Shown piece by piece: positions 5,894-63,974 of a DNA stretch of 64,000 nt. Each line of letters starts with the position of its first letter. Within the stretch, counting starts at the first letter, position 1. A program made the translations under genes and the position numbers. The DNA comes from a virus. Taxonomy: Duplodnaviria > Heunggongvirae > Uroviricota > Caudoviricetes. The notes beneath the pieces are model-generated. The model searched no databases, had not been told where the DNA came from, and saw only the letters and a program-made list of their open reading frames with translations. The stretch lies in the IMG/VR virus record IMGVR_UViG_2526164631_000023; one strand, given 5' to 3'.

Positions 5894-6005
5894 TGGTGGC
5901 GAACGTGTCGGTATCACCAACGTCACTTGACGTAGATGAAGGTGAAACTATCGCCGCGAACACTTCAAAGGCACAGAAAAAACAAAGCAGAAGTAAGGCA
6001 AAAAC

Positions 6006-6026
6006 ACGCCCCTGATTAAGGGGCGT
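6006..6026 (+). terminator. stem-loop terminator after the capsid-like gene
   Basis: ACGCCCCTGATTAAGGGGCGT hairpin. Confidence 0.4.
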
Positions 6027-6038
6027 TCAGGAGAAAAA

Positions 6039-6317
6039 ATGGCAAACATTCAAGTAACTATCACGCCATCTGACGCAACAGACAAATCTTTCACTGTTGA
6101 GTCAGATCACCCTGATATTGTCCGGGTTGATGGCACTACATGTACCGCTCTTAAGGTCGGGCAGGCAGTGCTGACAATCAAAACAAATGACGGCAATAAA
6201 ACCGCACAGTGCACAGTCACTGTTAGGGAGGCACATAAAAGCGTAAGCACCGTCAGTGTTGAACCAACTACGAAAGAAGTTACCGTAGGCGATAACTTCA
6301 CGGTAAGCCAATCCTGA
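6039..6317 (+). CDS. bacterial Ig-like (Big_2-type) domain protein
   Basis: 92 aa; pattern VTITPSDAT...VGQAVLTIKT...TVTV typical of Big_2 fold. Confidence 0.5.
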   Translation: MANIQVTITPSDATDKSFTVESDHPDIVRVDGTTCTALKVGQAVLTIKTNDGNKTAQCTVTVREAHKSVSTVSVEPTTKEVTVGDNFTVSQS

Positions 6318-6384
6318 TCAGAGGCTGCCCATTAACCGTGGGTAGCCTTGCCTCGTTCTCTCGCTTTAGAGGATAAGAACCAGC

Positions 6385-8043
6385 ATGAATAAGATTAGTT
6401 TTTCGGTAGGGCAGGCAGCTGGCGTTGCTGTAATGTCAGTAAATGCTGACGCTACCCTCACCAATACCAGCGGTGGCGCATCCGTCTTTGCTGGGCTTGT
6501 AATATCGCGTCGTGGCGCACCGGGTAAGGTACTGAAAGTTGACGATACGACTTATCAAAGCGTATTAGGTTCACCGATTCACCCTCGCCAGGGCGCGGCA
6601 TTTGAACCATATCGCCACGTGGAGCGTGCAGTAAAAGGCGGCTCTGGATATGTCGTTCGAGTTTGCGCTAAAGACATGAAGGTGCCGGGTATTTCTGTTT
6701 CCGTTGTGGGCAAAGCAAAAGCGGCAAAGGCGAGCAAAGAACTTTCCGTTGAACCTACTGAAACCACAGTAAATCCAGGTGACACATTAAGCGTTGGTGT
6801 TGCTTCAACTGCAACGACTCAATCAGTGACCTTCACACCCAAAGAGACGCCCCAGATTAAAGGTGGAGAGAAGGCATTATTCTTCATCAAAGATGGTGAT
6901 GCATCTCAAAATCGCACGTTATCACTAACTCGCGATGATGAAGAAAGCGAACTCTTTACGCTGACGCTGAAAGAAAAACAAACCGATGGGTCCATTGAGG
7001 TGCTGGAAAGCCACCAAGTGTCTTTCAATCCAGAAGGCACCAACGACATGGGCCAACCAGCATGGATTCCGACACTGCTTGAAAGCCAGTCCTCTCGCAT
7101 TGGTGCCGTACTGGCAGATAATGCAGAAGCATCCGCTGCTCAACTCATTTTTGAGGATGTAGCTTTTGAAGGTGGTACTGATGGAAATCTGTCCGAAATT
7201 AACGCTGCAGACTATCTGGAAGCATTAAAGGTTCTCGAAGCTTCAGAGGTTAATTACACCGCATTGCTGTCATTGGGTTGTTATGACGCATCCGCCTTAG
7301 CCGCAATCAAAAAGCTGGCTGAAGATGTTCGCGTAGACATGTTCTATGACCTGAAGGGCAACCAGACACCTGAAAACGCTATTTCAGAAGCGAAAAGCCA
7401 TAGTTTTGGCGGCTCACATCAACCAAGCCGTTACTACTTCCCGCTCTCCTGCCGAGATACCTTCACTGGGATGAATGTCGTCTATGGCATTAGTTGCGAC
7501 GCATTCGTAGCAAAAGCAAAAGGGGTAGCGCTGGTACCGGATGTTGGTGGTTGGCATTACGCACCGGCAGGTATATCACGCGCGATTATTGATCGACAGA
7601 ACATTGCCCGAATTCCAAATATCGGTGCAGTTGATCGTGAAGCGTTCGTTCTTGCGCGCATTAATCCGGTTTCAGTTGCTGCTGATGGGTCCGTTTACAT
7701 TGACGACTCTTTAACAACTTACAGCAAAAACAACTATCTGCGATTCCAGCATGTGTCTTCCTTGATGAACGCCATCGCCAGAGATTTCTATGAAGTAGCT
7801 CAGGCGATTAAGCACGAACCGGATGGCATTACCAAAGAAACGCTAATGAAAGCAATGACTGAATTGCTTGACCGTTACGTTGCAGCCGGTGCGCTGGTTA
7901 CTCCACGTGACAAGTCCCAGGGTGAAGATCCATACGTTGTTCAGGTTGTCCAAAAGGACATCGATCTGTGGGAAGTGTCCTGGTCTGTTTGTCCGACCGG
8001 TACAGCTCGCCGAATCGTCGGTAAGCCAATTCTGATGCGCTGA
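6385..8043 (+). CDS. contractile tail sheath protein with inserted Ig-like segment
   Basis: 552 aa; C-terminal region (GWHYAPAG...AFVLARINPVSVAADGSVYIDDS) resembles the P2 FI/T4 gp18 sheath family. Confidence 0.55.
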   Translation: MNKISFSVGQAAGVAVMSVNADATLTNTSGGASVFAGLVISRRGAPGKVLKVDDTTYQSVLGSPIHPRQGAAFEPYRHVERAVKGGSGYVVRVCAKDMKVPGISVSVVGKAKAAKASKELSVEPTETTVNPGDTLSVGVASTATTQSVTFTPKETPQIKGGEKALFFIKDGDASQNRTLSLTRDDEESELFTLTLKEKQTDGSIEVLESHQVSFNPEGTNDMGQPAWIPTLLESQSSRIGAVLADNAEASAAQLIFEDVAFEGGTDGNLSEINAADYLEALKVLEASEVNYTALLSLGCYDASALAAIKKLAEDVRVDMFYDLKGNQTPENAISEAKSHSFGGSHQPSRYYFPLSCRDTFTGMNVVYGISCDAFVAKAKGVALVPDVGGWHYAPAGISRAIIDRQNIARIPNIGAVDREAFVLARINPVSVAADGSVYIDDSLTTYSKNNYLRFQHVSSLMNAIARDFYEVAQAIKHEPDGITKETLMKAMTELLDRYVAAGALVTPRDKSQGEDPYVVQVVQKDIDLWEVSWSVCPTGTARRIVGKPILMR

Positions 8044-8080
8044 TTTATAACCCCCGCTAAATGATGCGGGGGAGAGAGGT

Positions 8081-8821
8081 TTGAATATGAAAAATTATAC
8101 TGCTGATCCTTTTATGCGTGCGATTTTCGGTTCTGGCTGCTTTGAAAGCGGTGATAAATCCACGCAGGACAATAATGATAACGCCATGCTGGAAAGCGCA
8201 GGACAGAAAGGAAAGGACACTCAACCAAAGCCCAAAGACGACATTGAAACCGCGATGATGGAAGCGGTTGAATCCCGTGCACAAGGTGATATGCGCAGCC
8301 TGGCAGCTTCCATGCTTGCTGGTTGGGTTGAAGATGGTGATCCGGAGGCTGACTCATTTGATGCATTAGCAATCACTATGGCTGGCCTGGCTGATATCGA
8401 TGAAGACACCGATTTCACCGATGAGCAAATCGATGCTTATAATGATGCACTCGCAGCTCTTGCTGATGCAGCTGTTGCGCTTGGCGCTGATCAGGATGAT
8501 GTAACCGAAATGATCGACGATGAAGATGACTCAGCTGCCGAACGTGTTTATGACGCTCTTTCCGAAAGCGACACCGACATGATGGAAACAGCTATTGCCA
8601 TTTACACCGTTGCTGGTGGTGATAGCGCAATGCTGGAAGCGGTACGTAAAAAAGTGGTTCGTGATGGCAAGGTAACCATCATCCGTAAACGCCCGCGTCC
8701 TCGCCGCATGACGTCATTGCAAAAACAGGCGCTGAAAAAAGCACGCCGCAAAGCACATACATCCGTAGCGAATATCAACCGCAAAAAATCAATGCGCATT
8801 CGCAAAAAACGCGGTTTGTAA
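8081..8821 (+). CDS. highly acidic protein with Arg/Lys-rich C-terminal tail
   Basis: 246 aa; D/E-rich body (DIDEDTDFTDEQIDAYNDALAALADAA...) then RKRPRPRRMTSLQKQALKKARRK. Confidence 0.4.
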   Translation: MNMKNYTADPFMRAIFGSGCFESGDKSTQDNNDNAMLESAGQKGKDTQPKPKDDIETAMMEAVESRAQGDMRSLAASMLAGWVEDGDPEADSFDALAITMAGLADIDEDTDFTDEQIDAYNDALAALADAAVALGADQDDVTEMIDDEDDSAAERVYDALSESDTDMMETAIAIYTVAGGDSAMLEAVRKKVVRDGKVTIIRKRPRPRRMTSLQKQALKKARRKAHTSVANINRKKSMRIRKKRGL

Positions 8822-8870
8822 GTGACATAGGCCGTCTGCAAAGGTGGCCTCTACCTGGGAGAAATAGCGT

Positions 8871-9461
8871 TTGATTTGCGGCGCGATAATGCCTGACGGA
8901 ATAAGTCCGTTAATGAAGGTTTATATCCTCTCTTCAGAGGATATGGTCGTCGGTTATATCGGTGAAGGATCTACCGCAGAACTGTCATCAATGTGGCAAT
9001 CACCATTTGAAAACCAGTCAGTAGGAGGTTTGCTTGGTGGTATTAGCGCTGCGGCTGGCTCTCTTGCAGATACGCTTCAGACCGCAACCGGCGTAACAAC
9101 AAAAACCCTCTTCAACTCAATGCTTGTTTGGGAAGGTCAGCAACCGCCTGAATTTAATCTGGTAATTGATTTCATGGCGACAACGAACGCGCAACTTGAA
9201 GTGAACGCAGCCATTACAGCATTGCTGAAGATGGAATCGCCGGAACTGAACAATGTAGCGCCATTCGGTCGTCGCCCGGAGACAGTAACGTTAAACATAG
9301 GTAGGAACATAGCCCTTACCGACGTTGTTATCAAAAGCGTGAGTTACCAACTGGACGCCCCACGCACACCGGAAGGCTATTTCACTCATAACACGGTAAC
9401 CCTGCAATGCAGCGGAAACACCTCGATTAACCGTAGCAACATATCATCTGTTTTTGTGTAG
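8871..9461 (+). CDS. tail-associated structural protein (start possibly at the internal ATG about 8913)
   Basis: ORF track; position between sheath and tube-like gene. Confidence 0.3.
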   Translation: MICGAIMPDGISPLMKVYILSSEDMVVGYIGEGSTAELSSMWQSPFENQSVGGLLGGISAAAGSLADTLQTATGVTTKTLFNSMLVWEGQQPPEFNLVIDFMATTNAQLEVNAAITALLKMESPELNNVAPFGRRPETVTLNIGRNIALTDVVIKSVSYQLDAPRTPEGYFTHNTVTLQCSGNTSINRSNISSVFV

Positions 9462-9469
9462 GAGTATTT

Positions 9470-9961
9470 ATGTCCGGTTTTGCAAATACAAAAGCCGATA
9501 TCGCTTTTCTGAAATCCCGGTTGAACAAAAACCTGGCAGCGGGCGAAAAACTTATTGGTTCAGAATTCTGGATGACTATTAAAGGTTACGAAAAACTATC
9601 TGTACTTGTTCGTACCACTCAGTTGCCGGAAATGACTCGCGAAGACGTGGAAGACTATGGTCCTGGCGGCATGAAGATCAACCAGCACGGGCCATTGCGT
9701 AACTCAGGTGAATTCCAGGTTACCTGCTCTGAAACCATCGAAGGGGATGTTCTGGCCGCCGTAAAACAAATGGTATATGGCAAAGAATATCTGGAAATTA
9801 CCTTACAGGCAGCGGCTGAATCCAATAGCGGTAACCATAAAGGTCTGATCCGCACATATTATCACTGCAAAGTGTATTCCGACGCAGTGGACTTCTCCAC
9901 CGAAGACGTAACAGCAGTCGTTAAGCCTTCCCTGCGTATTGTTTACAACTGGGTAGAGTGA
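9470..9961 (+). CDS. putative tail tube protein
   Basis: 163 aa; size and position after sheath; weak resemblance to myovirus tube proteins. Confidence 0.35.
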   Translation: MSGFANTKADIAFLKSRLNKNLAAGEKLIGSEFWMTIKGYEKLSVLVRTTQLPEMTREDVEDYGPGGMKINQHGPLRNSGEFQVTCSETIEGDVLAAVKQMVYGKEYLEITLQAAAESNSGNHKGLIRTYYHCKVYSDAVDFSTEDVTAVVKPSLRIVYNWVE

Positions 9962-10013
9962 TCTCTTTCCCGCCCTTGTGGCGGGAACTCCTTGTATTTG
10001 AGTTGTAGGTACG

Positions 10014-10565
10014 ATGACACCAACCGAATTATTAGAAAGCGTTAAAGCACGATTTAATCCACTGCTTGTGCGTGAAGAAGAAACGCTGAAAGCCTTCCTG
10101 ATCAAAGCTCTGACCACGTATCAGGACAGGGCAGGGGTAGTGAAAACGTTAAAACTTGAAAAAGCTGGTGGTACTGCAATCCCATTACCAGAAGATTATC
10201 TCTCTCTGGTTCATGTTACCGACAACAATGGCCTGTTGGTCTATTCGGATGAATTATCCGGATTTATTGAATTAGAGCTAACAGGTTCAGAGCGCTGGCC
10301 TTTTCGAATGCTGTATCTGGTTAATCTACACGACAGAAAGCTGGATGAATGGCAAGTGCCTCCTGCAATCATTGGAATGCTGGAGGAATATCTAGAGGCG
10401 CTTATCAATGTAAGAAATGTCGCCCGGCAGCGTAGAGCGTCCATCGACGGGAAATTTGACTACTCCGATCTGCCCGATGAAGCCACGCTATATGCCCGCG
10501 TGCAGGAGATTGAGGAAAAAATGTCCTCAAACCGGGCCATTATTCCGGGGGCTACCATTTTTTAA
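10014..10565 (+). CDS. hypothetical protein
   Basis: ORF track, 183 aa. Confidence 0.35.
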   Translation: MTPTELLESVKARFNPLLVREEETLKAFLIKALTTYQDRAGVVKTLKLEKAGGTAIPLPEDYLSLVHVTDNNGLLVYSDELSGFIELELTGSERWPFRMLYLVNLHDRKLDEWQVPPAIIGMLEEYLEALINVRNVARQRRASIDGKFDYSDLPDEATLYARVQEIEEKMSSNRAIIPGATIF

Positions 10566-20200: not shown

Positions 20201-20647
20201 ATGGCTGAAAATTTAAAGGCAAGAGATGGTAACCGCCTGTATAAGGCGCAATTGCTTTCCTACTATTATTCACGCCGCGCTGAGTCGGCGATCGGCAAAG
20301 GTGCGCGTTTTGTTATCTCTAAGGCGTATTGGTGCAAATCTAGTCTGGTAACTGCTAATGGTGCAGGAGGCTGGAATATAGCGGACATTCCACTCGATTT
20401 TAAATTGAGAAACGCTCAGCAGTTTGCTGTGTCCGATCTGATATTGTCCAGTGTGGATGGGATTATCACTATCAATGCAGCCTTCCCTCAAGAAAGAATG
20501 CCGGATAACACGCCTTACGACTTTAACACGCTTGTGCTTGTTGATGCTGAGGAACAGGCTTTTGCTGTGCTTTGCACCCAGCAAGACACCCTCTATAAAG
20601 GTAAACGTTACAGTATTCTCATGACAATCGAGCAAGTTGAGGGTTGA
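20201..20647 (+). CDS. tail-fibre-associated protein (P1 R-like position)
   Basis: 148 aa; stop overlaps the start of the fibre gene. Confidence 0.35.
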   Translation: MAENLKARDGNRLYKAQLLSYYYSRRAESAIGKGARFVISKAYWCKSSLVTANGAGGWNIADIPLDFKLRNAQQFAVSDLILSSVDGIITINAAFPQERMPDNTPYDFNTLVLVDAEEQAFAVLCTQQDTLYKGKRYSILMTIEQVEG

Positions 20648-23600
20648 TTATGGGTGCTGATAAAACGAACAACATAATGACACTATCCTCTGGTGTCTCA
20701 CAGCCGTTGCTTGCTGATGTTCAATATTTCGAACTCTATAGTAGTTCGGCTCTTAACAGAAAACTTAAAAATATTGTTTTGCCGGGCTTTTACTGTGGAT
20801 TTGAACCAGTTCCCGGCGCAGGGTTGAGAGTCCGTATAACTTCTGAAAACTCAGAAGGTAAAGGGGCTGCTTCAGTAGATGTAAATAATGTTCAGATATC
20901 CGTTCAGCAAATAGAAGATGTGACTGTCTCGGTAAAGGCTGGGGCTACCAACATTATTGTGCTAGAAGCCAATTTTGAACATGGTGTAAAAACGACACAG
21001 GTAGAGAGCGCATCTTCTGTCAGTGCTGCAAGAATTTACGCGCGTACGGACAATACTATTGGGCAGAATCAAATTGAATTATGTCGAGTTATCGTGCCTA
21101 ACGGCGCAACGGCTGTGACGAAAGAAATGATTGTGCTTAAATACCGGGTTAACCGTGCTGTTGGTGTCGAATTCTCTAATGAAATAAGCAGTACAGAAGA
21201 AAGAAAAGCGGCTACACCTCTGGCTGTCAAAACTCTCCATGATTTGGTTGATACAAAAGCTCCGCTCGATAGTCCACATCTGTCAGGTACGCCGACAGCA
21301 CCTACGGCCTCACAAGGCACAAATAGCACGCAGATTGCAAATACAGCCTTTGTTAAGGCAGCTATAACTGCACTTATCAACGGTGCACCTGGCACACTGG
21401 ATACGCTGAAAGAAATAGCGGCTGCGATCAATAACGACCCGAATTTCAGCACAACTATCAACAATGCCCTGGCTCTCAAAGCGCCTTTGGCAAGCCCGGC
21501 GTTCACAGGTACGCCGACAGCACCTACGGCCTCACAAGGCACAAATAGCACGCAGATTGCTACGACCGCTTATGTAAGAGCTGCCATATCCGCATTGGTT
21601 GGTTCATCACCAGAAGCTCTTGATACCCTGAATGAGCTTGCCGCAGCACTTGGTAATGACCCGAACTTTGCGACAACAATGACAAATGCGCTGGCAGGCA
21701 AACAGCCTCTGGATGCAACTTTAACCGCTCTTGCTTCCCTTGCGACTGGTGCAAACAAACTGCCTTATTTCACGGGTAAGGATACGGTAGCTCAGACTGA
21801 TTTAACGTCAGTCGGTCGCGATATTCTGGCTAAAACAAGCATACTGGCCGTTATCCAATACCTTGGTTTAAGAGAACTCGGTACCAGCGGTGAAAAGATC
21901 CCCCTGTTAAGCACAGCTAACACATGGAGTGCGCGCCAGACTTTCAACGGCGGGATCACCGGGGCGCTGACAGGGAACGCCGACACCGCGACGAAATTGA
22001 AAACCAAAAGGTCGCTTCAAGTTGACCTCCAAAGTGATAACGCCATCGACTTTGATGGTTCATCAAATGCTCTTCTGGGCATAAAAGGTATTTTACCAAT
22101 TACTCATGGGGGATTAGGTGCATCCAGCGTCTCTGGAGGGCGTACTAATCTTGGATTAGGTGTTGCGGACGTCCCCCAATTTAAGGGTATCAATCTTGTT
22201 AACTCAACAGACGCTGATTTAGCCGCGTCAGGGATTGTAAGTGGTTATCTGAATAATTCAGCTGGGGTACAGAGGAGTCGTTTCAGAATTTATTCAGAGA
22301 TAAGGAGTGGCAACCGCTCATGGCTGACGTTACATCTACAATCTGATACCAACACCAATAAATATGCCGGATTAGACATTGACGGTAACTTTCTGATTAC
22401 CGGAGATAGCAAATGCCGAGCATTAGAACCAACTGATGCAGCGTTAACAAGAAAAAATATTGATGTTTACAGCAAAGCCGAAGTAGACCTTAAAAAAGGG
22501 ATGAAATTCACCAGAGTCAATGCTCCTTCTGGAGCTGAAGAGGGTAAATTCTATCCTGTAGTCATCAAGAGATCTGCAACGAGCAATGGTGAACTTGCTT
22601 CTCGGGTTATTATTTCCACTGCGTCGCGCCAAGCTGCACATCGCATGAACAACTGCGAATTCAATGGTTTTGTGATGCCTGCTGGTTGGAGTGACAGAGG
22701 GCGGTACGCATACGGGATGTTCTGGCAATATCAGGATGCAGAACGGGCGATTCATTCTATTGCGATGAGCAATAAAGACGATGAAGTTAGCTCAGTTTTT
22801 TATATTGAAGGCGGAGCATTTCCAGTATGCGTTCTTGTGGAGGAGGGGCTTTCTGTTGTTGTCCCTACAACGGATTATATTGTTGGACAAACCACATACA
22901 AATGGGGGGCTACCAACCCTAAAGCTGAATGTATAGCTGCCGACATAATTATTGATTTTAGCAATGGTCGTGGTTTCTATAGCTCTGGAAACCTCAATGG
23001 TAATGCTGCAACAGCAACTAAATTACAGACCGCCAGAACAATCAACGGAGTAACCTTCGATGGCACTACTGATATTTCGTTGACACCAGAGAACATTGGC
23101 GCGCTGTCTCTATCCGGAGGCACATTATTAGGAGGTCTGACAGCTCCATTACTTACCACTAAAAGCGATCTTATTTTTAGTAGCCATACAAGCCGTCATA
23201 TCCGCTTTACATATACGAAAAATGACGGCACAACACTAACTGATGGGTACATATTTAAAGATGGCGTCGATAACCCTAACAGACGACCAGGCATCCGGAT
23301 AAATTGTGCTGCGCCGAATAAAGAAACCGGCAATGGTACTAATTCAGGTGATTGGATATTCGGTGAAGATGGCATTTTTACCATGCCGGGTGGCACTGTT
23401 CTTCGGGGAGGAATCAATAGCAATGGCGTGCCGCAAAGTGAGTATAAACATGACATGCTCACGTCAGTTGTTGACGATGCAAAAATGTATCTGCGACGTT
23501 TCCGCTCCAGCACAGGTGCAAGCATATGGCATGAAACAATAGAGAATAATGTTTATCGCTTATGCACAGGAACAACTGACGCTCAGGAAGAGTTAGTCTT

Positions 23601-24969
23601 GAGGACTGGTTCCTATGCGAAATTCGCTGGCGAGATTATTTCCAAATCGGCGAATGGTCTGCGCATTGTCTATGGCAACTATGGATTCTTTATCCGAAAC
23701 GATGGTTCAAGCACATACTTCATGTTGACCGATTCGGGTAACAGCCTAGGAACCTATAATAGGTTAAGGCCGCTTATCATTAACAATGCCAATGGTGCTG
23801 TTACGATCGGTAATGGACTCAATGTTACTGGCGGCATCAATGGTAGTTTGAACGGTAATGCTGCAACTGCAACAAAACTGCAAACAGCACGCACAATAGG
23901 CGGTGTGTCATTCGATGGCTCCGCCAATATCAACCTGCCGGGTGTAAACATTGCTGGTAACCAGAACACAACCGGTAATGCAGCGACAGCGACCAAGTTG
24001 CAGACAGCATGTACTATCAACGGCGTCTCGTTTGATGGTTCTAAAGATATTGAACTTAACCCACGGTCTATAGGCACGATCAACTCCACAACAATGTCTT
24101 TTAGTGGTGGTGCTGGATGGTTCAAGCTAGCAACTGTAACCATGCCACAGGCCAGTTCCGTGGTTTACATAAGCCTGATTGGTGGTGCAGGGTATAACGT
24201 TGGCTCCCCGCATCAAGCAGGCATCTCTGAGCTGGTTCTGCGTGCCGGAAATGGAAATCCAAAAGGTATTACTGGTGCATTATGGCGACGGACCTCGGTT
24301 GGATTTACTAATTTTGCATGGGTGAATACATCTGGTGATACCTATGATGTTTATGTTGAAATAGGTAATTACGCCACAGGTGTTAATATTCAGTGGGATT
24401 ATACCAGTAACGCCAGCGTAACGATTCATACATCACCAACTTATACAGCGAATAAACCAACAGGCCTGACAGATGGAACTGTATATGTAATTTACAGTTC
24501 GCACATTAAACCGACTGCTGCTGATGTTGGGGCGTTGTCATTATCTGGAGGTCAATTGAATGGTGCACTGGGCATCGGAACATCCAGTGCTCTTGGCGGT
24601 AACTCGATTGTTTTGGGTGATAATGACACGGGCTTTAAACAAAATGGCGACGGTAATCTGGACGTTTATGCTAATAACGTCCATGTTATGCGCTTTGTCT
24701 CCGGCAGCATTCAAAGTAATAAAACCATAAATATTACAGGGCGTGTTAACCCCTCGGATTACGGTAACTTTGATTCCCGTTATGTGAAAGATGTTCGCCT
24801 GGGTACGCGTGTTGTTCAATTGATGGCGCGTGGTGGTCGTTATGAAAAAGCCGGACACGCAATTACCGGATTAAGAATCATTGGTGAAGTAGATGGCGAT
24901 GATGAAGCCATCTTCAGACCAATACAAAAATACATCAATGGCACATGGTATAACGTCGCACAGGTGTAA
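20644..24969 (+). CDS. tail fibre protein (constant part Sc codons 1-407 fused to the currently expressed variable part Sv)
   Basis: 1441 aa; repeated fibre motifs NGNAATATKLQTARTINGV(S/T)FDG, ALSLSGG; C-terminus FRPIQKYINGTWYNVAQV parallels the Sv' C-terminus. Confidence 0.8.
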   Translation: MIMGADKTNNIMTLSSGVSQPLLADVQYFELYSSSALNRKLKNIVLPGFYCGFEPVPGAGLRVRITSENSEGKGAASVDVNNVQISVQQIEDVTVSVKAGATNIIVLEANFEHGVKTTQVESASSVSAARIYARTDNTIGQNQIELCRVIVPNGATAVTKEMIVLKYRVNRAVGVEFSNEISSTEERKAATPLAVKTLHDLVDTKAPLDSPHLSGTPTAPTASQGTNSTQIANTAFVKAAITALINGAPGTLDTLKEIAAAINNDPNFSTTINNALALKAPLASPAFTGTPTAPTASQGTNSTQIATTAYVRAAISALVGSSPEALDTLNELAAALGNDPNFATTMTNALAGKQPLDATLTALASLATGANKLPYFTGKDTVAQTDLTSVGRDILAKTSILAVIQYLGLRELGTSGEKIPLLSTANTWSARQTFNGGITGALTGNADTATKLKTKRSLQVDLQSDNAIDFDGSSNALLGIKGILPITHGGLGASSVSGGRTNLGLGVADVPQFKGINLVNSTDADLAASGIVSGYLNNSAGVQRSRFRIYSEIRSGNRSWLTLHLQSDTNTNKYAGLDIDGNFLITGDSKCRALEPTDAALTRKNIDVYSKAEVDLKKGMKFTRVNAPSGAEEGKFYPVVIKRSATSNGELASRVIISTASRQAAHRMNNCEFNGFVMPAGWSDRGRYAYGMFWQYQDAERAIHSIAMSNKDDEVSSVFYIEGGAFPVCVLVEEGLSVVVPTTDYIVGQTTYKWGATNPKAECIAADIIIDFSNGRGFYSSGNLNGNAATATKLQTARTINGVTFDGTTDISLTPENIGALSLSGGTLLGGLTAPLLTTKSDLIFSSHTSRHIRFTYTKNDGTTLTDGYIFKDGVDNPNRRPGIRINCAAPNKETGNGTNSGDWIFGEDGIFTMPGGTVLRGGINSNGVPQSEYKHDMLTSVVDDAKMYLRRFRSSTGASIWHETIENNVYRLCTGTTDAQEELVLRTGSYAKFAGEIISKSANGLRIVYGNYGFFIRNDGSSTYFMLTDSGNSLGTYNRLRPLIINNANGAVTIGNGLNVTGGINGSLNGNAATATKLQTARTIGGVSFDGSANINLPGVNIAGNQNTTGNAATATKLQTACTINGVSFDGSKDIELNPRSIGTINSTTMSFSGGAGWFKLATVTMPQASSVVYISLIGGAGYNVGSPHQAGISELVLRAGNGNPKGITGALWRRTSVGFTNFAWVNTSGDTYDVYVEIGNYATGVNIQWDYTSNASVTIHTSPTYTANKPTGLTDGTVYVIYSSHIKPTAADVGALSLSGGQLNGALGIGTSSALGGNSIVLGDNDTGFKQNGDGNLDVYANNVHVMRFVSGSIQSNKTINITGRVNPSDYGNFDSRYVKDVRLGTRVVQLMARGGRYEKAGHAITGLRIIGEVDGDDEAIFRPIQKYINGTWYNVAQV
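21851..21876 (+). promoter_or_regulatory. Hin/Gin/Cin-type crossover site 1 inside the fibre gene (core TT at 21863-21864)
   Basis: TTATCCAATACC TT GGTTTAAGAGAA versus gix/hix consensus TTATCNAAAACC NN GGTTTNNGATAA. Confidence 0.6.
23627..23865. repeat. left copy of an about 237-bp inverted repeat within the fibre distal modules
   Basis: Reverse complement of 26652-26890 with only about 2 mismatches; encodes EIISKSANGLRIVYGNYGFFIRNDGSSTYFMLTDSGNSLGTYNRLRPLIINNANGAVTIGNGLNVTGGINGSLNGN in both genes. Confidence 0.8.
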
Positions 24970-24972
24970 ATT

Positions 24973-25500
24973 ATGCAGCATTTAAAAAATATTAAGTCAG
25001 GAAATCCAAAAACAAAAGAGCAATATCAGCTAACAAAGAATTTTGATGTTATCTGGTTATATACAGAAGACGGTAAAAACTGGTATGAGGAAGTAAATAA
25101 CTTTCAGGACGACACCATAAAGATTGTTTACGATGAAAATAATATTATTGTCGCCATCACCAAAGATGCATCCACGCTTAACCCTGAAGGTTTTAGCGTC
25201 GTTGAGGTTCCCGATATTACAGCCAACCGCCGCGCTGATGATTCAGGAAAGTGGATGTTTAAGGATGGAGCTGTAGTTAAACGGATTTATACGGCAGACG
25301 AGCAACAACAACAGGCCGAATCACAAAAGGCCGCATTGCTTTCCGAAGCTGAATCAGTCATCCAACCGCTGGAACGCGCTGTCAGGCTGAATATGGCAAC
25401 AGACGAGGAACGCACACGACTGGAAGCATGGGAACGCTACAGTGTTCTGGTCAGCCGTGCGGATACGGCAAATCCTGAATGGCCACAAAAACCAGAGTAA
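24973..25500 (+). CDS. tail fibre assembly chaperone (U/Tfa)
   Basis: 175 aa; [24 protein letters not shown]; paralogous to the inverted copy 25529..26062. Confidence 0.75.
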
Positions 25501-25505
25501 AAATT

Positions 25506-25525
25506 AAGGCCCGATAGCGGGCCTT
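25506..25525. terminator. bidirectional hairpin between the convergent chaperone genes
   Basis: AAGGCCCGATAGCGGGCCTT. Confidence 0.5.
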
Positions 25526-25528
25526 CTC

Positions 25529-26062
25529 TCATTCTGGTTGTTCGGGAAACGTTACTGGCAGGCCGGAAGTGTCTGTAGATTCGACTTTCTGCGCATAGAG
25601 CATCCACTCGGTTAATTTTTGTTTATTCTCGTCGGAAATGATGCCCAGCCGTAGCTGTGAGTCCCATAGCTGGGTTTTATCCCTGACAAGTTGCAACAGG
25701 CTTTGCTTTTCATTTTCCGCTTGTTGCCTCTGCTCTTCCTCGGTATAAGTTCGCTTTATCACTACGCCATCTTTGAACATCCATTTCCCCGAAATATCAG
25801 CCCGGCGATTTGCTGTAATATCAGGTAATTCAACGACGCTTGCACCCTCTGGATTAATTGCTGAAACATCCTTTTCAATACAAATAATAACGCCGTTATG
25901 GTCATAGACCATTTTCAAAGTGTCTGGCTGGAAATTCTTTTGTTCCTCATACCAGTTTTTTCCATCATCTGAATAAAGCCATTTGATGTTAAATTGCTTT
26001 GTTAGCTGGTATTGCTCTTTTGTTTTAGGGTTGCCAGCAGTAATGTTTTTTAAGTGCATCAT
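25529..26062 (-). CDS. alternative tail fibre assembly chaperone (U')
   Basis: 177 aa; [24 protein letters not shown]. Confidence 0.75.
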   Translation of the reverse strand: MMHLKNITAGNPKTKEQYQLTKQFNIKWLYSDDGKNWYEEQKNFQPDTLKMVYDHNGVIICIEKDVSAINPEGASVVELPDITANRRADISGKWMFKDGVVIKRTYTEEEQRQQAENEKQSLLQLVRDKTQLWDSQLRLGIISDENKQKLTEWMLYAQKVESTDTSGLPVTFPEQPE

Positions 26063-26064
26063 CG

Positions 26065-27735
26065 TTAAATACTCCCCGCGTTATACCACGTCCCATTAAT
26101 GCAATACTGAATTGGCCTTGCCTGAGTTGTATCAATTAATTCATCACGGTTTCCGTTAACTGAACCCGTAACGACATAACCTGACCTGTCAGACCAGCCG
26201 GGACCATTCCATGTCTGAACAGATGACAGACCGCCAAGGCGAATACCTGTAATAAACCTTGAGTTACATTCTGCCTGCGTGTATGCACCAACATCTCCCG
26301 CAGAGGGTTTGCGGGTCGTGGTGTAAAACTCTGACCAGTCAGCCTCAAATCCATAACCATCACGCGCTGAACGATAAAAGATACCGCCGTTTTTATAATT
26401 CACGCGGAACTGTACAGCAGGGCAACTCCCCGCATTCATATTAAAGTGGAGGATTAATGTCGATGCGCCACCAATGTTTGCGTTATAGACCCCGCTATTC
26501 CAGTTCCAGCCAACAGCTTTATCATTTGCGACCCTGCTTCCTGTTTGCCCTAGAGCAAACGCACCTACATGACTTGCTTTTAATGTGATATCGGAGGAAC
26601 CATCAAAAGCCACGCCACTTATTTTTCTGGCAGTTTGTAACTTTGTAGCCGTAGATGCATTACCGTTCAAACTACCATTGATGCCGCCAGTAACATTGAG
26701 TCCATTACCGATCGTAACAGCACCATTGGCATTGTTAATGATAAGCGGCCTTAACCTATTATAGGTTCCTAGGCTGTTACCCGAATCGGTCAACATGAAG
26801 TATGTGCTTGAACCATCGTTTCGGATAAAGAATCCATAGTTGCCATAGACAATACGAAGACCATTCGCCGATTTGGAAATAATCTCGCCAGCAGCAGTTA
26901 ATCCGCCAGTTAACGCTCCTCCAGATAGTGGTAAAGCTCCGACATCAGCCGCAGTAGGCTTGTTTTTAGTGTTATACGCTCTGCGCCATCCTGGTGAATA
27001 ACTTGTGCCATTAGACACATAGATAAATTCAGCATTAGTGAGTGCGCCAGATACACTTGTCATCGTTGCCGTTGTTATTCGAATGGTGTAATTGTTGGTA
27101 TTATTGCTGAATACTTCTATCACAGCACCCGCCAGTGGAATAATGCCACAACCAGTTTCACTGTCTGGTATGGATGCACTATTTGCATACGCCCAAGCAC
27201 AACGAGCGAACCATGCTTTCGTATTGAATGCCCCGTTATTTTGCAACAAAGTAACTAACTGGGCTGTCGTTATTGACTCACCGTTATTACCTGTTGTTAA
27301 CCAACCAGTAGGAGATGCCGGGCAACCAATATTTGCTGGTGACAGTGAAATATTCGCAGAACCGTCAAATGAAACCCCATTAATGGTACGTGCTGTTTGT
27401 AATGTCGTGGCAGACGCCGCATTTCCTGTTGTGTTCTGGTTGCCCGTTGTATTTACGCCCGGTATGGAGTCTTTCGATGTATAGACCTGTGCCCACTCAG
27501 ACCATGCCGCACCTGTGTAATCTCTTCGGGAGCGAATGAAAACTGGCGCATGTGCACCGCTCGTACCACTCCAGCCAATAAGCAACTCGCCCTCACCAGC
27601 AGCACTCGCACCTTTCATGTGCAATACGTTGCCATACGTGGTCGGGTAGCTATTGTTGTACGCCTCGTACATTTGAATGCCAGCAGCGCCTTGAGTAGAG
27701 CCGCTTAACGCCGTAACTCGGCCACGAGATACCAA
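26065..27735 (-). CDS. alternative tail fibre distal segment Sv' (no ATG, preceded by in-frame TAA; silent in the present orientation)
   Basis: 556-aa ORF opening at TTG 27735-27733; C-terminus RPIQYCINGTWYNAGSI; fibre motifs; shares the 237-bp inverted repeat with the expressed fibre gene. Confidence 0.7.
   Translation of the reverse strand: MVSRGRVTALSGSTQGAAGIQMYEAYNNSYPTTYGNVLHMKGASAAGEGELLIGWSGTSGAHAPVFIRSRRDYTGAAWSEWAQVYTSKDSIPGVNTTGNQNTTGNAASATTLQTARTINGVSFDGSANISLSPANIGCPASPTGWLTTGNNGESITTAQLVTLLQNNGAFNTKAWFARCAWAYANSASIPDSETGCGIIPLAGAVIEVFSNNTNNYTIRITTATMTSVSGALTNAEFIYVSNGTSYSPGWRRAYNTKNKPTAADVGALPLSGGALTGGLTAAGEIISKSANGLRIVYGNYGFFIRNDGSSTYFMLTDSGNSLGTYNRLRPLIINNANGAVTIGNGLNVTGGINGSLNGNASTATKLQTARKISGVAFDGSSDITLKASHVGAFALGQTGSRVANDKAVGWNWNSGVYNANIGGASTLILHFNMNAGSCPAVQFRVNYKNGGIFYRSARDGYGFEADWSEFYTTTRKPSAGDVGAYTQAECNSRFITGIRLGGLSSVQTWNGPGWSDRSGYVVTGSVNGNRDELIDTTQARPIQYCINGTWYNAGSI
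26652..26890. repeat. right copy of the about 237-bp inverted repeat
   Basis: See 23627-23865. Confidence 0.8.
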
Positions 27736-27759
27736 TGTATTAATGTTGGTTTAAGAGAA
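27734..27759 (+). promoter_or_regulatory. crossover site A (core TT at 27746-27747), same orientation as site 1
   Basis: AATGTATTAATG TT GGTTTAAGAGAA; right half identical to site 1, left half degenerate. Confidence 0.5.
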
Positions 27760-28053
27760 CTCGGTACCAGCGGTGAAAAGATCCCCCTGTTGAGTACGGC
27801 TAACACATGGAGTGCACGCCAGACTTTCAACGGCGGGATCACCGGGGCGCTGACAGGGAATGCCGACACCGCGACGAAATTGAAAACAGCACGCACGATT
27901 GGCGGTGTGGTATTTGATGGCTCGGCCAATATCAACCTTCCAGGTGTAAATACAACAGGTAACCAGAACACCACCGGGAATGCTGCTACCGCGACAAAAC
28001 TTGCGACGGCAAGAAACATCAACGGTGTTAAGTTTGATGGCTCAGGCGATATC
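27748..28053 (+). other. 306-bp invertible mini-segment carrying 102 codons of the common Sv N-terminal region, currently facing away from Sv'
   Basis: 27748-27878 is about 95% identical to 21865-21995 of the fibre gene; exactly 102 codons in frame between the cores of sites A and B. Confidence 0.6.
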
Positions 28054-28067
28054 AAGGTTTAGGATTG
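28042..28067 (+). promoter_or_regulatory. crossover site B (core AA at 28054-28055), inverted relative to sites 1 and A; overlaps the invertase stop codon
   Basis: TCAGGCGATATC AA GGTTTAGGATTG; right half matches GGTTTNNGAT; the hybrid site predicted after A x B inversion (TTCTCTTAAACC AA GGTTTAGGATTG) resembles hixL. Confidence 0.5.
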
Positions 28068-28619
28068 AAATGATGACGCCGGAAACTTCTTATAAAGCGT
28101 GGAAACAGCCACATCATAGATGATTGCAACCTGCTTACGGGGGATGCCCTTCTCCAGCAATCGCCGCATTTGCTGCCATGTTTCTTCTTGGTATTTAGGC
28201 CGACGCCCACCTATACGACCTTCTGCGCGAGCTGCATCAAGTCCAGCGCGTGTACGTTCAACGATAAGCTCGCGTTCCATTTCTGCCAGCGCCCCCATTA
28301 CGTGAAAGAAAAAGCGCCCCATTGGTGTACTGGTGTCGATGGAGTCAGTGAGACTCCGGAAGTTAATGCCTTTGTCACGAAGCTCTTCCACCAGCACAAC
28401 CAAGTGACGCATGCTGCGCCCAAGACGATCTAACTTCCATACGACTAGGGTGTCACCTCTGGAAAGCATACGGAGAACCTTTTTTAACCCAGGGCGTTCA
28501 GCCTTTTTGCCGCTCGCCTTATCCTCAAAAATTAGCTCACATCCTGCGCTTTCAAGGGCGTTTCGTTGTAAAGCTGTGTTTTGGTCATTAGTTGATACGC
28601 GAATGTATCCAATAAGCAT
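28059..28619 (-). CDS. cin: serine DNA invertase of the Hin/Gin/Cin family
   Basis: MLIGYIRVSTNDQNTALQRNALESAGCELIFEDKASG...; 186 aa from ATG at 28619-28617 with GGGGG RBS; C-terminal HTH. Confidence 0.9.
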   Translation of the reverse strand: MLIGYIRVSTNDQNTALQRNALESAGCELIFEDKASGKKAERPGLKKVLRMLSRGDTLVVWKLDRLGRSMRHLVVLVEELRDKGINFRSLTDSIDTSTPMGRFFFHVMGALAEMERELIVERTRAGLDAARAEGRIGGRRPKYQEETWQQMRRLLEKGIPRKQVAIIYDVAVSTLYKKFPASSFQS

Positions 28620-28723
28620 ATGTCCCCCTTGTATGTTAAGGAGGGAGATTTTAGAAGATGTCCTGTAAGGAAATAACAAACTGACTAAGTTAGTGGCGCA
28701 TTAGATGTTATTTCTGGAGGGGT

Positions 28724-30106: not shown

Positions 30107-32035
30107 CAATCCTTTACGAATTAATATTCAGTCTACTTTTGCTGATACGATCCCCGGCTATATGCCAAGTCGCTGGTCTTCAGAAGAATTAAGCGAAGAT
30201 GACCTGATTTTTGAGGCGGCGACCTTAGAAGATATTGAGCTTGCCTATATGGGCAATGAAATTCTGGTTGTGTCTGACGAAGCTATGTTTGAGTCCATAA
30301 CTACAACCAGAATTCGGTTAGCTCAAACAATGCGAGCTTTCGTCCGTGCGCTGAATCGTGGCCTGAATGGTACGAATATTATGGCAGGGACTGATGAAGC
30401 CGGGACCGATGAAAATGGACGTAATTGTATTGGTGGTGCGATTATCGGTCGTGTACGTCGGGTAGCTAATATCCCTGTTTTGACCGCGCAGATACCGCTT
30501 ACTGACGGGCAGAGTACAAGCATAATTTTCCACTCTCCAACAGCTGACGGGGCAAAAATAAAGAGTAACGACGAGCTTGTTGCATTTCAGTTTTTACTTA
30601 ATAAGCGTAACGTAACTCACGTTGTCGCCCCGATTGGTGGGAGAGATGTTTCTTTAAGCCAGGTATGCCAGGCGCTATCTAATTTGATTGAGCGTAACAG
30701 CGAAAAATTTAAGAAGGCAAAAGAGCGCCAGGACAAAATGAAGGCAGATATTGAGAGTTATCTCAATGAAGCAGATAAACTGGCAGAAGAACGGTCAATA
30801 ATGATTGATCAGGTGGACGTTGCGCAACGTGGGCTGACTGAAAAGCGTGCTGCTCTTACGGAGATGCAAAAAAACTTGATGCCCAGAAAGCCATCAACGA
30901 GGAATTACAAGCAAAACGCGATAAATTGTTGTCTGCTAAAGGTGAAAAAACGAAAGAACGAGCGTTTAGCGACCAGCTGCGACATGTAAAACATAATCTT
31001 GCCATTGACGGAAAAACAGTGCTGGATAATGGCGCTGAAGTTAATTATGTCACGTCCGGCAGTGACAATTTCGTTACGATAGTAGCACCTGAAGGTAAAT
31101 TCAGTATTGATGCCAGTGCTGTCAAAGGAGGCAGTTTGGCAGATGCTGCAACCAAATTACTTAAAGCCTACCGAGAGCATAACGCAGATAAATATAAAGT
31201 TGATGTGTTACCAGGCCAGCAGGAAGACCCCGAACCACCACAGACAGACCCCGAGACGAACCCAGTATCACAACCAGAGAGCCAGGATGTAGGTAAATAC
31301 CACTATGCACTTCAATCTCGCCCGGCTGGTGTTGGTGCTGTGCCGGATGGAAATAAAGCCGTGCTTGATCGTCCTGACCAGGCTGATCAGTATTACGAAT
31401 ATGCTCGTCACGGTATCATTACGTATGACCGTAAACTGACAGATGAAGAAGTCAGCCAGTACGAGTTGCTCTATCTTCCTGATGAAGATGAGCTGAAAGA
31501 TTTTGCAGGCCAATTGGTTGTGTCCAGCATGTCGAAACATATTGATGGCTATGTAGACCTGTTTGGCAGTGACCTGAAAACATTCAAGGCGCAAGTGAAA
31601 ATTCTTTTCCGCAAAGCGTTTCCAAACGTGGCGTATCCACTTGGTGATGGGGAGAACCTTTTCATTATGGACGTATATAACGCCCTTCAAAATCATTCAA
31701 ACGAAGTAACGCCAGAGCCTGAATTAGCACCTGTAGTTGAGCCAGAATCACACCCACAAACAGCACCAGAGCAACAGCCAACGCCGGAAGACGCTGAAGA
31801 AGCGGCAACTGAAGCTGATCAGGAAGCAGATAAAGCACTGGAGTACCTAAAATCCGTCCCGGTGCAGTTTACATCTCGCGATCTGACGGTAATCAGTGCC
31901 GAACTTGACCATGTGCAGGAAGCTGCAAACGCTCTTATCAGTGCTGGTCGATACGACGAGAACGAATCAACGGTTGGCGCAGCAGTTGACTACCTGATCA
32001 ACATTCTGGCTGAAATTCAGCAGGGAGGTGCTTAA
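30093..32035 (+). CDS. virion/anti-restriction-operon protein split by a -1 frame change at A_AAA_AAC (30869-30875); zero-frame product about 298 aa, shifted product about 647 aa
   Basis: ORFs 30060..30989 and 30926..32035 overlap; coherent coiled-coil sequence continues across the A7 run only in the -1 frame (…TEMQKK LDAQKAINEELQAKRDKLL…). Confidence 0.45.
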
Positions 32036-39947: not shown

Positions 39948-42900
39948 GTGAAAATAACATTCTCCATACCCTCTCAACCGTACCGCATAGCGGAATTTTT
40001 ACGGTTTAGAGGGGGAAATCCTTTGGACAAACTACTTCATTCAATCAGTGAAGCCTCCAGCTTAGGCGAACTGATTGAAATTGTTAGTCGGTTGCATAAA
40101 TTACGAGCTGTTGCGACCTTTGGCGTCAGGAAAGCCGATGGCGTCAGTATTCAGAAAACACGCCGGGCAGCAAACAATGCCGCAGTAAATCTTCTTAATT
40201 CCCTTCCGCCCGGCTTCGATGGGGCGAAATTAACTGACGAACAACGTCAGATTCTTGCCGGGTATACCGGTGAAGGCGGCCTGACAGATGGTGAGGGCAG
40301 CCAATACGAATACTACACGCCACAGTTTATGGCTGAAGGTATATGGGATCTGTTTGCTGGCTACGGTATTGATGGCGGGCACGTACTGGAACCATCAGCG
40401 GGCACAGGTATTTTCCAGGAGACAAAACGACAGGGCATGATAATGACCAGCGCCGAACTGTCTCCGATTTCCGGTCGAATAAACCAGCTTTTGCACCCGG
40501 AAGACGATGTGAATATCGGGGCGTTTGAGGCGCTGGCGGCGAAAGACGCAATGTATGATCACGCTGTTGGTAACGTACCGTTTGGTGAAGGGCGTTCCGG
40601 TGTCGCCGGGCTTGATCCGGCATATGCAAACGAGAAGAACGTTGGCAATTACTTTGTGCTGCGCACGATCGACAAGGTTAAGCCTGGTGGGCTTATCGTA
40701 TTGGTGGTGCCGAATGGCATGACCGATGGTGCGAAATATAAAAAATTGCGCGATAAAGTCAGCCGTAAAGCGGAATTTTTGGGCGCGCATCGTATGCCTT
40801 CCGGTACGTTCAGTGAATCAGGTACAGATACCGTGGTGGACGTATGGGTATTGCGTAAACACCCGGAAGCCTTCCTGGAGATGATCCCCGATACGGATGA
40901 TTCGACGCTCAAATCGGCAAACGTCCTTTGGGATACCTTCCTCAAAGGAAAATGGTTTACAACCGAAGGGAAGCGATTTGTTTACGGCGACATGGAACGT
41001 ACCAGCTTCCGCAATACCCTGGTGGTGAAAAAAGACGGTCGTGTATCCAATGAGTCGATGAAAACCGCGCTATCTCGTCGCTTTGATAGTCGCATCAATT
41101 GGGATTTGCTCGGCGTAACTACTCAGGCATGGCAGGGCGCGAAAGTGGGCGATAAACGCCTTGTAGGCGGTATCTGGCATGAGTTTGATGGTCTGAAATG
41201 GGTTAAGGACACGACAACCAAATCCTCCGCGCTTGATGTAAGTCGATATGGTGTTTCGACGTTTGGCGATCTGCAGATCGCGTTTCAGTCAACAAATGGC
41301 ATTCTGGCTTTGTCATGGGACCAGATATCGGCGATCGCGTCTGACTATCCATCGGTTGTCAGTGATGAAGTGGCAGCAATGATTCGCTTTGCTGGCAAGC
41401 AGCGAGAAAAAGACAGGGAGCGCGTTATGCGCGGTGCACTGATAGGTCAGTTGATCAACAAGGCACTTGATTTGCGTAACCTGGGGGTGAACGTTGATGA
41501 CAAACTGGCAGATGCATCCCGCCTGGCGGCAGCAGAAGTTGCGAAGTATGGACCACCGCACGCGATTAAGCTGAATGGGCTTGCTGAAGCTGGCGCTAAA
41601 AACTGGATGACGTTCACTGGCAATGTGAAACAGGATGGTTCCACTTCTGACCTTCTGGCAGGGCGACTTGATGTAACGGATGGTGCTGCCGGTATTGACT
41701 TTACGCGTCCTGAACAAGTGATAGCACATCTTTTTAGTGATGTAGCCCTTAATCCTATAACGCTGGGCGACTTTCGTGAGGCGTTTGCTGGTGAACTGCC
41801 AGAGGACGACGACGCGGCCCTTGAATACCTGGCGAAATTTGATGATATCGCTATTGATGGGTATGGCTGTCTGCTGCCGATGGACCGCGCCACCAGCGGC
41901 GATGTTGCAACCAAAACAGCACTGCTGATGGGCTGGCGTGATGCGTCAACAGGTGAGCAGAAAGCGAACTTTGAGCGTCAGTTGGCGAAAATCGAAGAGA
42001 AACGTATTTTCACGCCACTAAATAAAGTCACCGTTAATCTGAATGCCCGCTGGCTGGATCGCCGCTTGATAAAAGAGTTCCTGGCAGAGCAGGGCTATGA
42101 CGAGTTTAAGTACACTGAACCTGATCTGAAGGTCGTCGATGGCATTCTGGTATCTCCGGACGATTACGAAGGTAAGGACGGGGTATTTACCGGCTATCAG
42201 CTACGAACCGTAAACGGCAAAAACGGGAATGAGTTCAAGAAGGCCAACAATAAAGACGGCTTCCTGAACCAGTTAGAAAACTACCTGAACGGTGTTAAAC
42301 CGCGTGGGCAGAACGCTAACGAGTACCTGGATAAAATTGCTCAACTGGAAGTTAGTTTTAACGACTGGTTACGCACTCACCCGCAGGCTGATCAGATAGC
42401 CCGCGAGTATAACGACGCATTCAATGGTTTCATTCCGTTCACGCATTCTGACGCACCGCTTGGCCTGGAAGGGCTTAGTGGAAAGCGCATTCCTCTTACT
42501 TATCAGAATGAAGAAGTTCGGCGCTTGTCAGAAGATGGGCGCGGCATCATGGGATTTGGTACCGGGCTGGGTAAAACCACGACCGCGCTTGCGCTTGAGG
42601 CGTATAACTTCGAAACAGGTCGCACTAAACGCACGTGTATTGTTGTTCCGAAGGCGGTTTATCAGAACTGGTATCACGAGGCACAGAGTTTCTACAGTGC
42701 TGATGCCTTCGCCAATATGATGTTTATCGGTTTGGATGAAGTTCGTGATGACAGCGGAAATATTCTGACCGCGCCGGTGCTTGATGAAAATGGCGAACCA
42801 CGCCTCGACAGTAACGGGCAGCCTCTTACCAGAAATGTTGTGAAAGAGTCCGCCAGCGCCGTTATCGTTCAGCGTATGAACATGATCCCGTCGTCAAATT

Positions 42901-61260: not shown

Positions 61261-63974
<2,714 letters not shown>

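Follow-up and report, generated by a model that had tools for sequence, protein, structure and literature searches.

The tail-fibre operon and its internal inverted repeat

We analysed a stretch of 64,000 nucleotides of tailed-phage DNA (IMG/VR record IMGVR_UViG_2526164631_000023; hereafter the window), which sequence comparison places among the P1/D6-like phage-plasmids. The fibre operon of the window is arranged in the order R-S-U-U'-Sv'-cin. Inside the coding regions of its expressed and its silent fibre lies a long inverted repeat, each arm of which we denote a hinge, and between the arms lies a block, denoted M, that consists of tipL-U-U'-tipR and is found in both orientations in otherwise near-identical plasmids. 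Window positions 21500-28300 match plasmid NZ_CP077480.1 of E. coli O111:H2 strain 12A at 100%. The sister plasmid NZ_CP066033.1 (E. coli FDAARGOS_1059; L003 in our numbering of relatives) is, like NZ_CP077480.1, 97,453 bp long; over the 64 kb of the window the differences amount to about 1-2 substitutions, a few single-nucleotide indels and the move of one IS100. The modules of the two fibres are as follows.

20644-24969, plus strand: S, the expressed tail-fibre gene of 1441 amino acids (Sc, shaft A1, hinge and tipL), taken from its open reading frame (ORF) and translation; homologous to gene S of P1 and D6
21864-23625, plus strand: shaft module A1, about 587 amino acids (S residues 408-994), which abuts the hinge at 23626 and moves together with its hinge flank in the sister plasmid
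23626-23932, plus strand: left hinge arm, encoding S residues 995-1097
23933-24969, plus strand: tipL, the distal receptor-binding part now fused to A1, which moves with the M block in isomers
24973-25500, plus strand: U, tail-fibre assembly chaperone for tipL (Pfam Caudo_TAP, E = 3.6e-36; 94% identical to P1 U)
25529-26062, minus strand: U', tail-fibre assembly chaperone for tipR (Pfam Caudo_TAP, E = 2.2e-36; 93% identical to P1 U')
26065-26585, minus strand: tipR, the silent alternative distal tip (weak Pfam gp37_C match; 93-97% identical to the S' tip of P1, Mu and D108)
26586-26892, minus strand: right hinge arm, defined by repeat search, base-by-base comparison and translation
26893-27746, minus strand: shaft module A2 of the silent fibre, the N-terminal half of a Gp34_trimer domain with its upstream region
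26065-27746, minus strand: the silent Sv' as a whole (tipR, right hinge arm and A2)

A repeat search showed that the arms are 307 nt long, 92% complementary and 2653 nt apart. Base-by-base comparison divided them into a core, 23626-23861, with only two mismatches, at 23661 and 23664 (234 of 236 positions identical), and a diverged tail of 71 nt, 23862-23932, with 22 mismatches and about 72% identity. The outer edge of the repeat is abrupt, since just beyond 23626 only 4 of 26 positions match. A repeat of such length and identity cannot have arisen by chance in 64 kb. The inverted repeat that the initial annotation had reported inside both fibre tips is thus confirmed, and it is somewhat longer than was stated there. 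It had also placed about two mismatches in the span 23627-23865; two is the correct number for 23626-23861, whereas the span as claimed has five (234 of 239 identical), because it runs a few bases into the diverged tail.

Both arms are read in phase 0. As had been noted earlier, they encode the same 79 residues in an uninterrupted identical run, and across the full arm 97 of 106 residues are identical. The peptide spans the C-terminal half of a Gp34_trimer domain (Pfam) and then runs on into the beginning of a NGNAATATKLQTAR collar. Such collar blocks occur in S at residues 786, 1071 and 1111, with a variant at residue 444, in agreement with the earlier description of this 1441-residue protein as unusually long and internally repetitive. 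Pfam matches in S are Phage_fiber_2, Gp34_trimer and a weak gp37_trimer; within A1 there is no Pfam match. A1 appears to comprise a complete knob-like domain and then a collar motif of its own, and its junction with the hinge splits the Gp34_trimer domain, of which only profile positions 57-116 match, so that the junction resembles a recombination scar. The distal tipL is 96% identical to G-segment sequence of a Mu-like phage, with a P1-like C-terminus.

The hinge is not confined to this plasmid. It forms an inverted pair in a subfamily of P1/D6-like plasmids, and P1, D6, Mu and D108 have one copy, 75% identical to that of the window. Three different shafts (A1, A2 and a third, T) meet the hinge at the same boundary; A1 itself is also found in relatives L004 and L010 and in the L020 lineage. 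One relative, L010 (CP042632.1), has three hinge copies in 5128-10511 (one plus, two minus), together with a duplicated tipL-like block and many frameshifts: either the silent fibre has undergone a genuine tandem duplication or the assembly is of low quality.

Near-identical plasmids differ by inversion between the hinge arms

Comparison with relatives involves the outer crossover sites of the operon, c1, c2 and c3, and a short segment B between c2 and c3. Sites were scored with a position weight matrix (PWM) that was trained only on annotated P1, Mu and D108 half-sites and calibrated on 1.18 Mb.

21851-21876, plus strand: c1, canonical cixR-type site TTATCCAATACC TT GGTTTAAGAGAA with its core at 21863-21864, identical to the annotated cixR of P1 and D6 (PWM 31.2, the top score in the window)
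27734-27759, plus strand: c2, hybrid site AATGTATTAATG TT GGTTTAAGAGAA with one canonical half, in direct orientation relative to c1 (PWM 4.0)
27747-28054, plus strand: segment B, 308 bp or 102 codons, flipped relative to the canonical arrangement; it adjoins A2 in the sister plasmid, L004 and others
28042-28067, plus strand: c3, hybrid cixL-type site TCAGGCGATATC AA GGTTTAGGATTG whose outer half is canonical; a perfect cixL in the sister plasmid

The hinge arms lie 1762 bp inside c1 and 1162 bp inside the cin-proximal crossover site. Thus, as the initial annotation stated, the repeat is internal to the coding regions and does not sit at the ends of the invertible segment, and no cix site was found at its outer edge (23626/26892), unlike the P1 arrangement.

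The order in the window is c1-A1-hinge-M(+)-hinge-A2-c2-B-c3, and that in NZ_CP066033.1 is c1-B-A2'-hinge-M(+)-hinge-A1'-c3. Inversions between c1, c2 and c3 carry A1-hinge-M-hinge-A2 as a unit, therefore the presence of A2 rather than A1 beside tipL requires an exchange inside the hinge, and Cin acting at the outer sites cannot yield the NZ_CP066033.1 isomer from that of the window. In this pair the variants at 23661 and 23664 follow the flanks and the 22 differences at 23862-23926 follow M; this linkage of single-nucleotide polymorphisms (SNPs) places the crossover within the 197 identical bases 23665-23861.

The same inversion was found repeatedly. Positions 5628-9459 of L004 correspond to 8956-5129 of L010 in inverted orientation (99.45% identity), with collinear flanks at 99.86%, and relatives L011 and L012 differ by the same inversion of the block between the hinge edges. 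A further set of plasmids, the CP122754 lineage, has a hinge about 90% identical to that of the window and a repeat of 191 bp. When its members (relatives at 98% identity or above) were classed by outer and M orientation, about three were arranged as CP122754, about five were outer-flipped only, four were M-flipped only and seven were flipped in both, so that the four isomers are present in similar numbers. A single pooled pig sample yielded three isolates, RHB13-C01, C02 and C03, whose shared 95,217-bp plasmid is in a different isomeric state in each. SNPs outside the repeat divide the CP122754 lineage into three clades, each of which contains both M orientations, so the lineage has seen no fewer than three independent flips, and the plasmids as a whole no fewer than six. 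The inner flip therefore recurs across three hinge lineages, in which the arms share from 191 to 433 nt in relatives and 236 nt, with the two mismatches, in the window.

Together these data leave the inner inversion, and the swap of tip and chaperone between shafts that it produces, as good as shown. The initial annotation had proposed that inversion across the repeat would exchange only the distal tip and its cognate chaperone, and near-identical database plasmids differ by exactly such an inversion.

All four combinations of shaft and tip are in frame and give intact ORFs of 1441, 1269, 1241 and 1069 amino acids. The hinge is a coding module shared between two shafts (A1, or B with A2) and two tip-chaperone cassettes (tipL-U and tipR-U'). 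Recombination between the arms inverts the 2.65-kb tipL-U-U'-tipR block and changes the tip and chaperone behind the expressed shaft, leaving the shaft untouched; combined with the ordinary Cin flip at the outer cix sites, this generates a 2 × 2 set of predicted fibres. In the sister plasmid Sc-B-A2-hinge-tipL is read as a single annotated fibre of 1239 amino acids.

Cin, the outer crossover sites and the flipped segment B

28059-28619, minus strand: cin, serine DNA invertase of 186 amino acids (Pfam Resolvase and HTH_7; three substitutions relative to P1 Cin)

The mechanically called ORF of the invertase, 28059-28679, begins at an upstream TTG and has 206 amino acids; alignment to P1 Cin gives 186, with the start MLIGY at 28619. 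A putative recombinational enhancer at 28530-28601 is identical to the annotated P1 enhancer at 68 of 72 positions. An invertase of the Hin/Gin/Cin/Pin family thus lies next to a segment flanked by inverted 26-bp sites, c1 (TT core) and c3 (AA core), with the enhancer in cis and a constant Sc followed by alternative Sv/U and Sv'/U', and both outer orientations occur among relatives. Every defining feature of the Din family that we examined was present, which makes this a true Cin/cix system of the P1 family. Some P1-like IncY plasmids (L015-L018, e.g. NZ_CP101260.1 and NZ_CP062860.1) have lost both cin and cixL and carry a single fixed fibre with the same hinge allele and cixR; some IMG/VR relatives keep only a 50-amino-acid cin remnant.

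Segment B departs from the canonical arrangement. Inversion of B between c2 and c3 restores a perfect P1-type cixL and a contiguous B-A2 reading frame, which is the state of the sister plasmid and of other relatives. The first 142 nt of B are 96% identical to the start of A1. Since the breakpoints of B fall exactly at the 2-bp cores, leaving the reciprocal hybrid sites c2 and c3 behind, the arrangement bears the signature of a flip by the invertase at a secondary (quasi) site. The ground-state form of c2 would be AATGTATTAATG TT GATATCGCCTGA, which scores -14.1 bits and is essentially non-consensus. The c2 junction was found in none of 72,556 PLSDB plasmids.

The flip of B severs the silent Sv' from its cix-proximal part. 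A c1 × c3 flip in the window isomer joins Sc to reverse-complemented B, with a stop after four codons, and outer Cin inversion is accordingly predicted from the reading frames to be non-productive in this isomer. As the outer flip would truncate the fibre, the inner flip would be the only productive single-step change of tip open to the window isomer. Neither the flip of B nor its effect on the outer inversion figured in the initial annotation.

IS100 (IS21 family, 1954 bp), outside the operon, occupies 61741-63693 in the window; in NZ_CP066033.1 it lies at the equivalent of window 31502-31506, beside a head-protein gene. The total length of NZ_CP066033.1 is unchanged, indicating that the element was relocated between the two plasmids.

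Homologous recombination or site-specific inversion at the hinge

The product of the inner flip is predicted to be the same whichever enzyme makes it. We consider the chances about even that the crossover is made by homologous recombination. The crossover would depend on host RecA, perhaps stimulated by a plasmid-encoded Ref nuclease, and would take place on 190-430 bp of identity, and gene conversion in its course would also maintain the identity of the arms. Concerted evolution of the arms makes homologous recombination the most economical explanation. Positions 23669, 23711 and 23748 vary between lineages and are always alike in both arms; between 23732 and 23816 L020 departs from the window at 17 positions, alike in both arms; and the variant pair 23661/23664 is linked to A2 in the window and to A1 in L026 and L027. 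Such concerted changes require homologous gene conversion or exchange between the arms, and site-specific recombination cannot make them. Homologous recombination thus demonstrably acts on the arms, and it would suffice for the flip, as a stretch of 190-430 identical bases is an adequate substrate. NZ_CP066033.1 also encodes, outside the window, a Ref-family recombination enhancement nuclease (94815-95393) and an RdgC homologue (81547-82452), both of which may affect homologous exchange between repeats as short as the hinge arms. The time between the sampled plasmids would suffice for modest recombination rates to bring the isomers to equilibrium.

Several observations weigh against homologous recombination and form the case for a site-specific event. 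The left arm contains a cix-like motif.

23690-23715, plus strand: cix-like motif TTATCCGAAACG AT GGTTCAAGCACA, with a twin at 26803-26828 (PWM 14.2)

The crossover intervals of four lineages (23665-23861, 23683-24058, 23626-23735 and 23665-23816) intersect on 23683-23735, a segment of 53 bp that contains the motif. With only about one or two such hits per Mb, this placement is unlikely to be due to chance. The right-hand limit is set by the arm SNP at 23736. Around the putative core the arms do not differ for 20 bp or more in each direction, which limits the resolution of the crossover to these 53 bp, and mapping at this scale has little power to tell the two mechanisms apart. The Y-C haplotype (M end Y with C), which would mark a crossover to the right of 23736, in the right-hand 80 bp, was present in none of the 16 heterozygous plasmids. 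Only about two of the informative flips are provably independent, and if crossovers were uniform, the pattern would have a joint probability of about 0.1-0.3; crossovers in the right-hand segment would, besides, be disfavoured by short-homology effects. Finally, Cin is evidently active and promiscuous in this plasmid, because B was flipped at a non-consensus site.

On a site-specific reading, which we regard as possible and put forward tentatively, the twin motifs are recombined by Cin or by some other Din-family invertase of the host, for example a prophage-borne Gin (Mu-like) or the e14 enzyme Pin. Their AT core is palindromic, so that the twins would pair only with each other in a nested multi-site system like p15B Min, and the surrounding repeat would be shared coding sequence kept identical by occasional gene conversion. 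Among the approximately 64,000 positions of the window only cixR scores higher than the motif, which also outranks the evidently used hybrids c2 and c3; the left half of the motif, at 12.3 bits, is near the natural halves. The peptide FIRNDGSST dictates all four departures of the motif from the TTNTCNNAAACC consensus, and at the six positions where a synonymous change is allowed, one of them in a CGA arginine codon, the sequence always agrees with the consensus; only 6 of 82,944 synonymous recodings score as high (weighted P 1.5e-4). In Mu and P1 the orthologous sequence scores 1.8. The T-type flank ceases to diverge 7 bp short of the motif. Cin is intact and its enhancer conserved, and in the flip of B Cin used far worse sites than this one. 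The sister strain has a second active Din system, available in trans: long reads confirmed inversion at a Mu-like prophage in its chromosome, the only replicon reported for this strain (Milman et al. 2023, PMC9881135).

Against this, a score of 14.2 lies in the noise tail (the next hits are 14.0, 13.4 and 13.3), and all genuine cix/gix-type sites, including those on which the matrix was not trained, reach at least 20.4. The right half of the motif is weak, at 1.9 bits, with a G inside the A-tract, and the codon test falls to about 0.03 once corrected for the approximately 200 windows in the interval. The same motif allele is found in single copy in loci that lack cin. The 80 IMG/VR loci that encode the hinge include only one further inverted pair, and it has the same allele, leaving the association of motif and repeat without an independent replicate. 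The L020 and window alleles form a mosaic whose boundary falls near 23732 and not at the core, and site-specific exchange cannot explain the concerted evolution of the arms.

A stronger form of the same idea, that the hinge carries a genuine second class of Din site, with an AT core, coded in a conserved fibre domain and orthogonal to the TT-core cix, so that one invertase would serve a two-tier switch, is likewise possible, and we put it forward as tentatively. If it were correct, the outer tier would choose shaft and tip together and the inner tier the tip only, giving the 2 × 2 repertoire. We rejected the notion that the hinge is a relic of Mu gix: position 2735 of P1 corresponds to the boundary of the Mu G segment and the hinge lies about 300 bp inside Mu Sv, and the orthologous sequences of Mu, P1, D6 and D108 are not site-like. 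Two other cix-like sequences in the window, TTTTCTGAAATC CC GGTTGAACAAAA at 9505-9530 (PWM 11.9) and TTCCGCAATACC CT GGTGGTGAAAAA at 41007-41032 (PWM 14.0), have no partner or repeat context and are probably noise.

The reading of the initial annotation is thus borne out in part. The exchange of tip and chaperone across the repeat is strongly supported, whereas its homologous and invertase-independent nature is possible rather than shown: all mapped crossovers fall within the 53 bp that hold a cix-like motif, no right-hand recombinant was seen, and Cin or another host Din-family invertase may be involved.

Incidental flips and assembly artefacts

Apart from the enzyme involved, the flips might be without purpose. 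The repeat could be a by-product of mosaic fibre evolution in which one hinge allele happened to receive both tips. It would then make no functional difference which shaft a tip is on, and the inner flip, merely repeating what the Cin flip does, would be incidental and not a selected host-range device. The canonical arrangement lends itself to such a view, as the outer Cin flip already reaches both tips there, and so do the wide sharing of the hinge, with three upstream shafts and many single-copy occurrences, and the scar-like junction at which A1 and the hinge cut a Pfam domain midway. We nevertheless consider it unlikely, given that the inverted pair with identical arms is maintained in several diverged lineages, that all four isomers are common with all four products intact ORFs, and that in the window isomer the inner flip would be the sole productive single step.

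That the flips are assembly artefacts, mis-joins across an unresolved inverted repeat of 190-430 bp, is highly improbable: NZ_CP092241.1 (E. coli M37H), a 2,588-bp "plasmid" made of the M cassette (ends X and Y) and about one hinge copy, is a typical assembler symptom, and L010 has indels and a triplicated hinge, yet more than 15 complete plasmids, from laboratories and platforms unrelated to one another, show the flip, the linkage of arm SNPs to flanks and M is fully consistent, repeats this short are spanned by any long read, and an arbitrary choice by the assembler would still imply both orientations in the culture. NZ_CP092241.1 itself probably arose when an assembler met a repeat-flanked invertible segment that was unresolved or heterogeneous.

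Significance and comparison with known systems

Among the carriers of resistance genes in Enterobacteriaceae, P1-like phage-plasmids are abundant. The fibre locus sets their host range, and the textbook view of it is one invertible segment and two fibres. The present data show that a sizeable subfamily has a nested second inversion that re-pairs two tip-chaperone sets with two shafts, with all four isomers common in nature. This bears on annotation, as isomers can pass for different fibre genes (for example, 1239 versus 1441 annotated amino acids), and on predicting or engineering the host range of P1-based transduction. It raises the question whether phase variation can be programmed via homologous recombination across a conserved coding hinge instead of a dedicated site. 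The locus, at which both mechanisms predict the same product, is also a clean natural substrate for gauging the promiscuity of Cin in vivo.

The M block resembles the G segment of Mu (Gin/gix), in that tipL-U-U'-tipR is 92-97% identical to the tips and chaperones of Mu, D108 and Mu-like phages. In Mu, however, the crossover sites stand at the Sc/Sv junction and the repeats are only 34 bp, whereas the window hinge maps to a point about 300 bp within Mu Sv and has no homology to gix.

Recombination by Cin at secondary quasi sites, cixQ, was reportedly obtained in a selection experiment by Iida and Hiestand-Nauer in 1986-87. The flip of B is like it in breaking at the 2-bp core of cixL and at a site that shares little beyond the core dinucleotide, with reciprocal hybrids as the outcome; it differs in being the fixed state of a natural plasmid and in its consequence, a non-productive outer flip.

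The Min system of p15B, studied by Sandmeier, Iida and Arber in 1990-1992, is reported to use six good mix sites and a Pin-like invertase. It offers the nearest known parallel in these phages for a repertoire exceeding two fibres, and it shares with the window a P1-family tail-fibre operon, more than one overlapping or nested inverting segment and more than two fibre variants. The window differs in having only two good sites (c1 and c3), a quasi-site, c2, that was used once, and an inner pair that is at best a quasi-site in a homologous repeat.

Nested programmed inversions with inverted repeats in coding regions, more than two protein variants and non-functional intermediates have been described by Milman et al. 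2023 (PMC9881135). Those cases are attributed to dedicated recombinases, whereas the inner step here may be homologous, and the present plasmid is not among the loci reported there. In the searchable literature we found no description of a nested hinge repeat in P1-type C segments.

The nearest relative is the C segment of P1 itself, with Cin/cix, as also in D6 and P7. It shares the R-S-U-U'-Sv'-cin layout, an identical cixR, a Cin 98% identical, a conserved enhancer, two alternative tips that each have their own chaperone and, within the invertible segment, common coding sequence repeated in inverted orientation. The difference lies in where the repeat is. The initial annotation had pointed to the 0.6-kb repeats of P1 as a contrast, and these do abut the cix sites, unlike the hinge, so that P1 has one invertible unit and two fibres; P1, D6 and Mu have the hinge sequence in one copy, in Sv only. 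In the window the long repeat lies 1.2-1.8 kb inside the cix sites with two unrelated shafts between, giving a second, nested unit and four fibres. This second invertible unit, bounded by a long coding repeat, is what distinguishes the locus from P1.

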